Part shown: piece by piece, positions 13,303 through 15,747 of the stretch
Layout: each line of letters begins with the position of its first letter
Numbering within the stretch: the first letter of the stretch is position 1
NCBI GenBank assembly: GCA_050302075.1
Contig: JBNLAH010000001.1
Location: 132,157-196,156 of the forward strand
From: Parachlamydiales bacterium
Lineage (GTDB): Bacteria > Chlamydiota > Chlamydiia > Chlamydiales > SM23-39
Direction: 5' to 3'
Length of the DNA stretch: 64,000 nucleotides
Translations under genes and position numbers: made by a program
Notes under the pieces: model-generated
What the model was told of the DNA's origin: nothing
The model's database searches: none
Seen by the model: only the letters and a program-made list of their open reading frames with translations

Positions 13303-14007
13303 TTATTTGATCTTTTTCTGTATTTTTCTTTGCAGCGGTGACAGCACAATCTCATCAAACAAAACATTAGGGCTAGAGTTCAAAATCATCAAAATGATCT
13401 TCGCAATGTTGTCGGGAGATAAAGAAGAATGAAAGCCGTCAGCTGGCTCAAAGTTATGATCTGTAAAGAATGGAGTTTTTGTCATTCCAGGTTGGATTAT
13501 ACTAACCCTGATATTTGAAAATGAAACTTCATCTTTTAGAGCCTGAGCAAATCCTCTTAGGGCAAACTTTGAAGCGCAGTAAAGAGTTCCTTTTTTTTTG
13601 CCTTGAAGCGCAGCTTCCGAGCCCATAAATATTATATCACCTTTTTTTGATCTTTTAAACTGTGGCAAAAACAGCTTAATTAAATAAGCATGCGATATAA
13701 GATTTACATCCATGATATTTTTCATCTGTGAGAGTGAAAATTCTTCCAAGTTGCCAAACTTTCCAATACCAGCATTGCAGACTATTGCATCGATATCGCC
13801 TGCAAGTGAGGTGATTTTTTTATTGTCTTTTTCTAATAAGTCGAGCTTACTTAGATCCATTTTTATATGTGAATATAACTGGTCTTTTTCAAGATCAGGA
13901 TTAATAGTCCTACACATTCCAACTACTTCAAAATGGTTTTTTAGTAAAAGCTGAGCTGTCTTAAGCCCGATTCCAGAGCTAGCTCCTGTAATTAAAACTC
14001 TTGGCAT
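13303..14007 (-). CDS. Short-chain dehydrogenase/reductase (SDR)
   Basis: ITGASSGIG, CNAG, YCASKFALRGF, IQPG; start overlaps the upstream radical SAM gene by 16 nt. Confidence 0.9.
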   Translation of the reverse strand: MPRVLITGASSGIGLKTAQLLLKNHFEVVGMCRTINPDLEKDQLYSHIKMDLSKLDLLEKDNKKITSLAGDIDAIVCNAGIGKFGNLEEFSLSQMKNIMDVNLISHAYLIKLFLPQFKRSKKGDIIFMGSEAALQGKKKGTLYCASKFALRGFAQALKDEVSFSNIRVSIIQPGMTKTPFFTDHNFEPADGFHSSLSPDNIAKIILMILNSSPNVLFDEIVLSPLQRKIQKKIK

Positions 14008-14969
14008 AAGAAAACCTTATTTTTATCAACATACTTGCAGATCTGATCATTACAAAATGAAACAAGGCCCTGCGCTAGTTTTTTTGAATACTCATAGTGA
14101 CTATTATTTTTGTCTAAGTAAGCTAGAATTTTTTTATTATATACATTTTGTTTCATTGTCTTAAAAAGGCTAACTGGAATTCTAAATGATCCAGTAGTAA
14201 CAGAGTGTAGTTTTCTTTCAGATATTCTAGAAAAAACTTGTTCAAAAAAATCTGAATATGTTTTTTGAAAATCTTCAACATACATAATAGGATCAAAACG
14301 AAGTCCTATACTCCATCCCATTTTTTGAAGTTCTAAAATTGAATTTAGCCTACTTTCTAAAGAGGGTGACCTTAACTCAATTTCTTCTGATACAATTTTG
14401 GGACTTAGTGTATACGCAACAATACAATTTGGAATAACTTTTGACTTAGTTAATGACCTGATGTTGACGCTTTTAGTTCTTAGCTCAAAATATGCGTTAG
14501 AGTTGTTCTCAAAAAAAGGCAGGAATTCAGACACAAAACTTGTTTTCGATTCGAGTGCTAAGCTGTCAGCGTCGTACCCTGTAAAGAAATAACTATTGTT
14601 AGTGATTTTTCGTGAAATTTCGCTTTGAAAATCTTCATAGTTTACAAACAAGACGTAGTTTGCTGACTTATACATTCCTTGCAAAAAACAATATTGGCAA
14701 TCAAAAGGGCAATTTAAAAGATGCGAAAAATAGTAGTTTGAACTTCCACCTATTCCGTAATGTGCTGGTATCTCATGGACAAAAGAATTTTCTTTTTTTG
14801 CAATAATGAGCGCTGGATTTTGCTTTTGCATTCTGAAGCTTTGTTTCTTTCGGTTGAATATCTCAGTATATTTGTCGCAGAGAATTATTTTTTTAGATCT
14901 GCAGTTTTCTATTATACGCTTTGTTCTAGGATGCCCTGAAACACTTTTTTCAATGTAGATTGTATCCAT
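13992..14969 (-). CDS. Spore photoproduct lyase (SplB)-like radical SAM protein
   Basis: NCPFDCQYCFLQG (CxxxCxxC), VN.ED, ELRTKS, E...PSLESR, GLRFDPI - the layout of the SPL family. Confidence 0.85.
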   Translation of the reverse strand: MDTIYIEKSVSGHPRTKRIIENCRSKKIILCDKYTEIFNRKKQSFRMQKQNPALIIAKKENSFVHEIPAHYGIGGSSNYYFSHLLNCPFDCQYCFLQGMYKSANYVLFVNYEDFQSEISRKITNNSYFFTGYDADSLALESKTSFVSEFLPFFENNSNAYFELRTKSVNIRSLTKSKVIPNCIVAYTLSPKIVSEEIELRSPSLESRLNSILELQKMGWSIGLRFDPIMYVEDFQKTYSDFFEQVFSRISERKLHSVTTGSFRIPVSLFKTMKQNVYNKKILAYLDKNNSHYEYSKKLAQGLVSFCNDQICKYVDKNKVFLCQEF

Positions 14970-15747
14970 TTTCTATGAGAATTTTTAAATTGTTGAGGAT
15001 TTTTTTAGCAGATTTTAACTCGAGTAGCTTATTGGTGTTATAGCTTATCTCTAGCAAACTAGCCTTTTCTAATAGCTCGACTAGCTTTATTTTTTCAGTC
15101 TCAGTGAAGTGCACATTTTCTATAATTGGATTTATTTCAATTTTATTTTCAATTGGCAATGCACTGTTTATTTTAGAAATGCTGTCTATGAGTTTCTGCA
15201 ATACTGGTATGTTATTTTCAATTAAACTAGCAAACTTGTTTTTATCGAGATTATTAACTGGAAAGCTCTGATTATCTGAAATGATCTTAAGTGAATGAAT
15301 TACATCAATATTTAAAAAGTTCAAACAAGCGTAGAAAAATCCATATCCTTCCATATCTAATAAAGTATCTATCGAGTAGTCTAGATGAGGTTTTGAAAAG
15401 GTAGTTAGCTCATCAGTTTTTCCTCTCCATTTAATTGCCATCGATGGATAGATTGTTTTTTTTGTTTCATCATCATGTAGTTTATGTACAAGAACGGCCT
15501 CATTTATTGGCTCAGATTTATGGCCTGCAATTCCCACATTAATTGCCCCTGCAATCTTGGTATCACCCAGCTTTCCAAAAAAATATGAAATGGCTGAAAT
15601 ACAAGATAACTTTCCAATGTTTGTAACTATTAAAAACAGATTAGAGCCTATGTAGATTGGAAAAGGGGCTTTATTAATTTGCTTCATTCTGAAATGACTA
15701 ACTATCGGTCTTGCTTCGGTAGGTGTTGCGACTGCGATTAAGATCAT
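14950..15747 (-). CDS. Nucleoside phosphorylase / MTA-SAH nucleosidase-like protein (PNP_UDP_1 fold)
   Basis: ILIAVATPTEARP, TNIGK, INVGIAG, LDMEGYGF and KIISD motifs. Confidence 0.75.
   Translation of the reverse strand: MILIAVATPTEARPIVSHFRMKQINKAPFPIYIGSNLFLIVTNIGKLSCISAISYFFGKLGDTKIAGAINVGIAGHKSEPINEAVLVHKLHDDETKKTIYPSMAIKWRGKTDELTTFSKPHLDYSIDTLLDMEGYGFFYACLNFLNIDVIHSLKIISDNQSFPVNNLDKNKFASLIENNIPVLQKLIDSISKINSALPIENKIEINPIIENVHFTETEKIKLVELLEKASLLEISYNTNKLLELKSAKKILNNLKILIENGYNLH

Follow-up and report, generated by a model that had tools for sequence, protein, structure and literature searches.

Three genes that overlap head-to-tail on the reverse strand of a 64,000-nucleotide stretch of Parachlamydiales DNA (assembly GCA_050302075.1, contig JBNLAH010000001.1, positions 132,157 to 196,156; from here on, the window) raise the question of what an enzyme with the fold of a DNA repair protein could be doing between a nucleosidase and a dehydrogenase. 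The first gene, here called NUC, encodes a protein with the fold of the 5′-methylthioadenosine/S-adenosylhomocysteine (MTA/SAH) nucleosidases (MTANs); the second, RS, encodes a radical S-adenosylmethionine (SAM) enzyme that resembles spore photoproduct lyase (SPL, or SP lyase); and the third encodes a short-chain dehydrogenase/reductase (SDR). A first-pass annotation, made from the letters of the window, had taken the three for parts of a possible uncharacterised pathway. The results of this work show that their linkage recurs across phyla, and that NUC and RS occur together almost without exception in an even sample of genomes and are even fused into single proteins. The reading that we favour, tentatively and at somewhat under an even chance as far as the mechanism proposed below is included, is that the three genes form one functional module, a conserved and so far uncharacterised small-molecule pathway, and not a DNA repair system.

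Linkage of NUC, RS and SDR across phyla

The association of the three genes was followed from RS. One genome per species was scanned, and the best 80 of at least 582 confirmed matches were taken as loci: 40 from Methylococcales, 9 from Latescibacterota, 6 from Chlamydiota, 4 from Gemmatimonadota, 3 from Planctomycetota, 1 each from Verrucomicrobiota, Acidobacteriota and Legionellales, 13 from other or unlabelled Gammaproteobacteria, and 2 from genomes titled only ‘Methylococcales symbiont’ (L011) and ‘Methylococcales bacterium’ (L029). Of the 74 loci that extend far enough downstream, 68 contain an orthologous SDR, defined by at least 120 bits against that of the window, and in 65 of 76 the SDR is the very next open reading frame (ORF) after RS (per locus, the best SDR reaches a median of 198 bits against the same protein, and the commonest gap between the two genes outside the window is −13 nt). 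Of 78 loci, 22 have NUC as the ORF preceding RS, and of 75, 28 have it within 6 kb; where the two adjoin in other loci, the gap is in most cases between −23 and +9 nt. This pattern spans Pseudomonadota, Chlamydiota and five other phyla. Gene overlaps are frequent in compact genomes and by themselves weak proof of anything, so that it is the conservation of the linkage across phyla, and not the overlap alone, that places the triad above chance. The first-pass annotation had let its proposal hang on whether homologues show conserved linkage to nucleosidase and SDR genes, and the linkage is strongly conserved, NUC-RS fusions included.

The Methylococcales arrange the genes in their own way. NUC adjoins RS in only 1 of their 40 loci, and in all five genomes searched among those without an adjacent NUC a strong orthologue (~285 bits) is found elsewhere, in variable contexts. 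A quick-method tree of 84 RS sequences places the Chlamydiota on long basal branches and needs two changes of label.

An even sample of 201 Gammaproteobacteria gives the association at the level of whole genomes. RS occurs in 26 of them (25 at E < 1e-128) and NUC in 26; 24 have both, two have RS only, two have NUC only and 173 have neither. One of the RS-only genomes has a weak match, and both NUC-only genomes have truncated ones. Of the 24 genomes with both genes, 20 have NUC immediately upstream of RS. The canonical MTAN, by comparison, is found in 20 of the 201 genomes, namely in 2 of the 24 with the triad and in 18 of the 177 others. NUC is thus specialised rather than housekeeping, and the canonical MTAN is neither excluded from nor required in the genomes that carry it.

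In some genomes the two proteins are one. The 657-aa protein P0122 has a nucleosidase part at residues 1-290 and a radical SAM part at 336-657 (by pairwise comparison), in the same order as the genes, and the 631-aa protein P0123 combines PF01048 with PF20903 according to precomputed Pfam domains. In addition, the NUC and RS matches of genome G105 (C51:7199-9139, reverse strand) fall in a single open frame of 658 aa, which is probably a natural fusion within the window RS's own subfamily and not just in the distant, 32%-identical one. A search for fusion partners of NUC among longer proteins scored none, which is weak evidence.

The six loci without an orthologous SDR (L049, L053, L062, L078, L081 and L084) form one clade, in which a family 2 glycosyltransferase (GT2) precedes NUC and RS and which comprises Gammaproteobacteria, a metagenome-assembled genome of Legionellales and one labelled Planctomycetota. 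Even here a distant SDR (17-36 bits by phmmer) stands divergently upstream in four of the six, and a fifth was recovered by clustering. Five of the six also carry an Aas-like acyltransferase/AMP-ligase fusion (PF01553 + PF00501), which may hint at a lipid link in this one lineage. Besides this fusion in one clade and the GT2 in some lineages, no conserved extra neighbours of the triad were found.

Folds and active sites of the three proteins

RS belongs to a large family (3479 homologues at E ≤ 0.001, ~50% identical across phyla), the members of which are publicly named DNA photolyase, deoxyribodipyrimidine photo-lyase, spore photoproduct lyase, SPL family radical SAM protein or simply radical SAM protein. 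It scores 45.7 bits (E 5e-12) against the Pfam SPL family PF20903, exceeding the gathering cut-off of 27 bits, and its family profile (A1) finds SPL in the PDB at E 2e-19. A structural comparison with SPL, which the first-pass annotation had suggested, was run with Foldseek on an AlphaFold model built from 16 sequences (pLDDT 76.6): six SPL entries are returned at E ~1e-13 with a template modelling (TM) score of 0.57, the next fold following at 1.7e-3, so that RS keeps the SPL fold over its full length and the SplB-like radical SAM identity first given to it stands. Against NCBIfam, nothing beyond the two SPL models is matched at E ≤ 0.01: TIGR03886 gives 45 bits, and the SP-lyase equivalog TIGR04070 gives 70.7 bits, its cut-off of 400 not being reached.

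PMC3467042 describes for SPL a hydrogen-donor Cys140 (or a clostridial alternative before the cluster), a Tyr98 proposed as part of a radical relay that may regenerate SAM, SAM ligands that include Lys174 and Ser195, and a long hairpin with Arg304 and Tyr305 which, together with Arg273 and Lys309, serves lesion flipping and phosphate binding, Arg273 additionally contacting the lesion phosphate. In RS, the cluster motif is C87-x3-C91-x2-C94, and all 124 aligned sequences keep its three Cys; K166, T187 and R263 align with SPL Lys174, Ser195 and Arg273 in the profile alignment. Directly after the motif comes F95, and across the family 119 of 123 members have Phe here and 4 have Tyr. The segment aligned with Cys140/141 reads TGYDADS; its motif Y132-D133-A134-D135 puts Tyr132 opposite Cys140 in the profile alignment to 4K9R. 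The residue alignment thus points to an SPL-shaped family that binds SAM as SPL does and has not kept its radical relay.

Both residue claims of the first-pass annotation, C-F-L after the cluster and a Cys140/141 segment devoid of Cys, are borne out for the RS of the window. The absent Cys, however, does not extend to the family: at the window's Ala position, two residues past SPL Cys140 in the profile alignment, most members read GYDCDS; of 123 sequences, 94 have Cys there, 15 Gly, 11 Ala (the window's among them) and 3 Thr, and the absence of the Cys marks the Chlamydiota branch together with a few others. Since most members have a Cys only two residues away, the argument from its absence is weaker than first held, and the case against SPL identity is carried by the near-invariant Phe and the failed equivalog score. 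A fourth invariant Cys was not found in the family, and the segment before the cluster is also without Cys.

Set beside SplB itself (EC 4.1.99.14; TIGR04070; Geobacillus thermodenitrificans structures 4FHC-4FHG, 4K9R and 4RH0), RS has the same whole-length fold, the CxxxCxxC motif, a Tyr preceding the third Cys and the SAM-ligand positions. On the other hand, it is ~15% identical, has Phe at Tyr98/99, is without the conserved hydrogen-donor Cys, does not align in the hairpin region, and is encoded in a nucleosidase-SDR operon of non-sporulating bacteria from many phyla. The alignment to 4K9R/4FHC, a profile alignment and not a residue-level superposition, ends at family position 291, before the SPL hairpin, and the hairpin of the RS model, at 286-293, is short. 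The family has a median pI of 7.4, and its invariant acidic residues are E7, E36, D90, E112, D133, D135, E162, E198 and D226. Judged by its sequence, and in agreement with the first-pass annotation, RS is not a canonical SP lyase, the reasons being the equivalog score, the Phe in place of Tyr, the variable Cys position and a non-sporulating chlamydial host. For the idea that RS could be a queuine lyase, the literature searched yielded only a review, and the neighbouring genes do not fit it.

NUC consists of an MTAN fold (residues 1 to ~175) and a family-specific helical C-terminal domain of ~90 aa (helices at 180-261) that carries a conserved W-H-F-T-x-T-Q motif. By itself the protein has no Pfam match at E ≤ 0.01, its C-terminal domain matches no family, and against PF01048 it scores 12.8 bits, the cut-off of 25.1 not being reached. 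Its identity emerges from profiles and structure: a profile of 22 sequences (A2) picks out MTANs (E 9e-9) and CT263 (E 0.004) among PDB entries, and, among the Foldseek matches listed for the AlphaFold model (pLDDT 93.1), all are MTANs, futalosine hydrolases or CT263, the best at E 1.6e-13. The PNP/MTAN fold named in the first-pass annotation is therefore upheld. Searches of the ESM Atlas found only unnamed or generically named nucleoside-phosphorylase clusters.

The catalytic set points the same way. E11, M132-E133 and S157-D158 are invariant in all 22 sequences and align with the EEE-V, M-E and S-D of Staphylococcus aureus MTAN; we take them to be the equivalents of Glu12, Met173-Glu174 and Ser196-Asp197 in E. 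coli numbering. As the full MTAN catalytic set is kept, NUC should be a competent hydrolase that releases adenine from a 5′-substituted adenosine. It resembles the MTA/SAH nucleosidase Pfs (TIGR01704) in fold and in the positions of the catalytic Glu, Glu and Asp, and differs from this single-domain protein of ~230 aa by falling below every family cut-off, by its ~90 extra residues and by its co-occurrence with RS.

The third protein is a classical SDR, its family being that first annotated (PF00106, 144.3 bits, E 4e-42), with the motifs TGASSGIG and YCASK. It reaches no NCBIfam equivalog (the best, PRK07326, gives 133.7 against a cut-off of 271), and its nearest solved structures are generic, with 17-beta-hydroxysteroid dehydrogenase, YMR226C, sepiapterin reductase, clavaldehyde dehydrogenase and ribitol 2-dehydrogenase among them. 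Its sequence has an Arg after strand beta-2 (VVGMCRT), which suggests that it is probably NADP(H)-dependent. None of the anti-phage defence families modelled in PADLOC-DB was matched by NUC, RS or SDR.

A pathway, a clean-up or a repair enzyme

If the three proteins act one after the other, the SPL-fold RS would cleave SAM and yield an adenosine-bearing intermediate, most likely by adding the 5′-deoxyadenosyl radical to a substrate, as HpnH, MqnE and ArsS do, or, less likely, by rearranging an adenine nucleoside that serves as its substrate. NUC, presumably tethered to RS by its additional C-terminal domain, would then cut off adenine and leave a 5-substituted 5-deoxypentose, the freed sugar carbonyl of which the NADP(H)-type SDR would reduce or oxidise. 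In some lineages the GT2 would take this product further; the source genome has no orthologue of it, and its best match, being only 27% identical, is a generic GT2. Of this scheme, the reaction order, the adenosyl adduct and the complex of NUC with RS are what we infer.

In the HpnH/HpnG/HpnI, MqnE/MqnB and ArsS routes, a radical SAM enzyme is followed by a nucleosidase of the MTAN/PNP family and then by sugar-tailoring enzymes, and by analogy the reaction logic of the triad would match theirs. The likeness to HpnH/HpnG(/HpnI), which make the bacteriohopanepolyol side chain, covers a radical SAM enzyme that attaches 5′-deoxyadenosyl to its substrate, a PNP/MTAN-family nucleosidase that takes off adenine, a reduction of the ribosyl carbonyl and possibly glycosylation by a GT2, and six loci have the gene set GT2-NUC-RS together with an SDR. 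In contrast to that system, RS has the SPL fold, neither RS nor NUC has an NCBIfam match (E ≤ 0.01) outside the SPL and futalosine-hydrolase models, and Chlamydiota are not known to make hopanoids. MqnE/MqnB similarly pairs radical adenosylation with an MTAN-type nucleosidase, and NUC counts the Helicobacter pylori MTAN/futalosine hydrolase and Chlamydia trachomatis CT263 among its closest structural matches, whereas it has the extra C-terminal domain and RS is unrelated to MqnE. The sole link found to the ArsS route is a sub-threshold match of the GT2 to an arsenosugar glycosyltransferase model (72 bits against 182).

Several points weigh against this pathway. Sequence cannot tell the addition of a radical from the abstraction of a hydrogen atom, and the one SPL-fold enzyme known to have been characterised works by hydrogen abstraction; RS has no homology to HpnH, MqnE or ArsS; and the physical coupling of NUC and RS is suggested only by the fusions and the gene overlap. 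Moreover, no conserved substrate-supplying gene was found beside the triad, the pLDDT of the RS model falls below 50 at residues 62-75 and 84-103, around the cluster loop, and the locus counts are of related and not independent genomes, 40 of the 80 loci being from Methylococcales. Finally, a dedicated nucleosidase could equally remove 5′-deoxyadenosine, an inhibitory by-product.

This last point is the core of the rival that survives best, which we regard as possible though doubtful. RS would abstract a hydrogen atom from a small molecule and consume SAM stoichiometrically, NUC would only hydrolyse the inhibitory 5′-deoxyadenosine, and the SDR would act on the product of RS or on the released 5-deoxyribose. 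With Phe in place of the relay Tyr in 119 of 123 members (the relay role being the one that PMC3467042 gives), 5′-deoxyadenosine would be released at every turnover. Such a need would also fit genomes that have no MTAN of the usual kind: the canonical enzyme was not found in the source genome, where the sole other PNP_UDP_1 protein is an AMP nucleosidase, nor in any of the five Methylococcales carriers searched. In E. coli, Pfs relieves the inhibition of BioB and LipA by 5′-deoxyadenosine, which is a precedent for the idea.

The Gammaproteobacteria speak against it, however. The 173 of 201 genomes without NUC and RS would not be expected to lack radical SAM enzymes, and with the canonical MTAN in only 20 of the 201, neither enriched in nor excluded from the carriers, bacteria evidently dispose of 5′-deoxyadenosine without NUC; two carriers even possess both NUC and the canonical MTAN. 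NUC tracks a single radical SAM enzyme almost one-to-one and is fused to it. Nor does the loss of the Tyr explain the partnership of NUC with RS, since the fused subfamily retains a Tyr after its cluster (CEYCYLRG) and still carries the nucleosidase. Waste disposal would also be an unusual task to occupy two of three conserved genes, whilst an SDR, and sometimes a GT2, suit action on a freed sugar. On these grounds, we favour an adenosine-bearing intermediate over a by-product as the substrate of NUC.

That RS could instead act on nucleic acids, repairing or modifying a pyrimidine lesion or a base in DNA or RNA with NUC and SDR as helpers, is improbable in our judgement. The full-length SPL fold and the public names of its relatives, DNA photolyase and SP lyase among them, would be in line with it, as would the retained SAM-binding residues, including the Arg aligned with SPL Arg273, which also contacts the lesion phosphate (PMC3467042). 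But neither the SPL hydrogen donor nor the relay Tyr is retained, the profile alignment stops short of the DNA-flipping hairpin, the score for TIGR04070 is far under its cut-off, and the family's median pI of 7.4 and its many acidic invariant residues fit such a role poorly. Neither is there a DNA-binding partner, the conserved neighbours (SDR, and GT2 in some lineages) being small-molecule enzymes.

A last candidate, that NUC is the source organism's futalosine hydrolase (MqnB), like C. trachomatis CT263, and adjoins RS by chance, was rejected as most improbable: against its weak match to TIGR03664 (E 0.002, 17.8 bits against 124.7) and the place of CT263 among its best structural matches (TMt 0.74, 22% identity) stand the co-occurrence of NUC with RS in the sampled Gammaproteobacteria, the NUC-RS fusions, and the source genome itself, which is 96.2% complete and in which neither the MqnA/MqnD family (PF02621) nor MqnE (TIGR03700) was found.

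The chlamydial locus and the reach of the family

The head-to-tail overlaps of 20 and 16 nt given in the first-pass annotation are found at exactly the coordinates it gave (Table 1). They are not artefacts of start choice, as the N-terminus of RS aligns with the N-termini of its homologues and so does the TGxxxGIG of the SDR at residues 7-14. The window has ~33% G+C, and the source genome measures 1.84 Mb.

Table 1. Features of the triad locus and its surroundings (positions in the window; (-), reverse strand)
Feature	Position	Strand	Size	Basis or remark
NUC	14950..15747	(-)	265 aa	ORF list
RS	13992..14969	(-)	325 aa	ORF list
SDR	13303..14007	(-)	234 aa	ORF list
NUC stop / RS start overlap	14950..14969	(-)	20 nt	RS ATG inside ...GAAAATGGATACAATCTACATTGA
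RS stop / SDR start overlap	13992..14007	(-)	16 nt	ORF list and DNA sequence
rsmI (16S rRNA C1402 2′-O-methyltransferase)	15748..16542	(-)		TIGR00096, 253 bits
tRNA-Cys (GCA)	16557..16630	(-)		
Promoter-like site	16673..16645			10/12 matches
Ulp1/C48 peptidase-like protein	16683..18329	(-)	548 aa	PF02902, E 4e-7
GroEL paralogue	11027..12445	(-)	472 aa	Cpn60_TCP1, E 7e-22
Protein with weak alpha-amylase match	8899..10965	(-)	688 aa	alpha-amylase catalytic domain, E 3e-6

The stop codon of rsmI abuts the start of NUC in the window sequence (TAAATG), and the gene is probably co-transcribed with the triad. It nevertheless stands outside the conserved module as a gene of context, for it lies upstream of NUC solely in the Chlamydiota loci L002, L005 and L071. 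The tRNA-Cys just upstream overlaps the listed GTG start of rsmI (16566), so that the true start is probably a Met further downstream, e.g., at 16542. A promoter-like site lies beyond the tRNA-Cys and rsmI; counts in the promoter and terminator scan were no higher than the shuffle level. A search for a riboswitch or other RNA leader that might betray the ligand gave none, either in 12 loci (at gathering thresholds) or in positions 9000-20000 of the window (at E ≤ 0.1); all that matched were tRNAs and rRNAs.

Two further proteins of the surroundings were looked at in passing. The 548-aa protein has an Ulp1/C48 peptidase core with long unassigned flanks, matches a RickCE-like catalytic domain at E 2e-6, and resembles the deubiquitinase/deSUMOylase-like effectors of intracellular bacteria. 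The sole match of the 688-aa protein is the weak one given in the table.

The relatives of the source genome show how the triad comes and goes. The RS relatives of this genome carry the labels Chlamydiota or Simkaniaceae. Among the 41 relatives compared, seven have an RS match, with NUC adjacent in the five strong ones, and in all five same-family relatives without an RS match the ORF directly after rsmI is one of 463-473 aa. The one such ORF compared is the GroEL paralogue that in the window follows coaX. Since rsmI directly precedes that ORF in the relatives without RS, the triad is present or absent as a block. The window's GroEL paralogue is short and divergent, and 33% identical to the GroEL-like gene after rsmI in relative L102. 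In one relative from the same order (L006/L008, G029:C134:871-1644) the RS match falls into two pieces (query 3-110 and 144-296), and the gene may be broken or rearranged there.

In Creative Commons PMC papers and bioRxiv, the literature searched (subscription journals were outside its scope), no description of the RS family or of the operon was found, and the pathway may thus be called uncharacterised, as it was at first pass. New in this work are the Chlamydiota instance of the triad, which comes and goes as a block at the rsmI site, the table of RS and NUC co-occurrence across genomes, the lack of correlation with the canonical MTAN, and the variability of the supposed Cys. Taken by analogy, the results suggest that the triad is, in kind, a small-molecule pathway of the radical SAM plus nucleosidase type. 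The names DNA photolyase, deoxyribodipyrimidine photo-lyase and SP lyase, under which its central enzyme is filed, imply DNA repair, which the evidence presented here does not support.

The SPL fold is not known outside DNA repair. It is conceivable, although we would not count on it, that it has been recruited for radical adenosylation, in an invention independent of HpnH, MqnE and ArsS, and that, together with its dedicated and sometimes fused nucleosidase and the reductase, it yields a 5-substituted 5-deoxypentose or pentitol not described so far; producers of such a metabolite would range from methanotrophs to environmental Chlamydiota. Given that the RS family is large and is present in very small genomes too, a widespread metabolite or modification is probably missing from the metabolic maps. 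The triad offers an experimental handle on it, consisting of three small soluble proteins with natural fusions and with carriers among culturable methanotrophs, and what it brings to light would be either a reaction type new to the SPL fold or a new, enzyme-attached way of disposing of 5′-deoxyadenosine.

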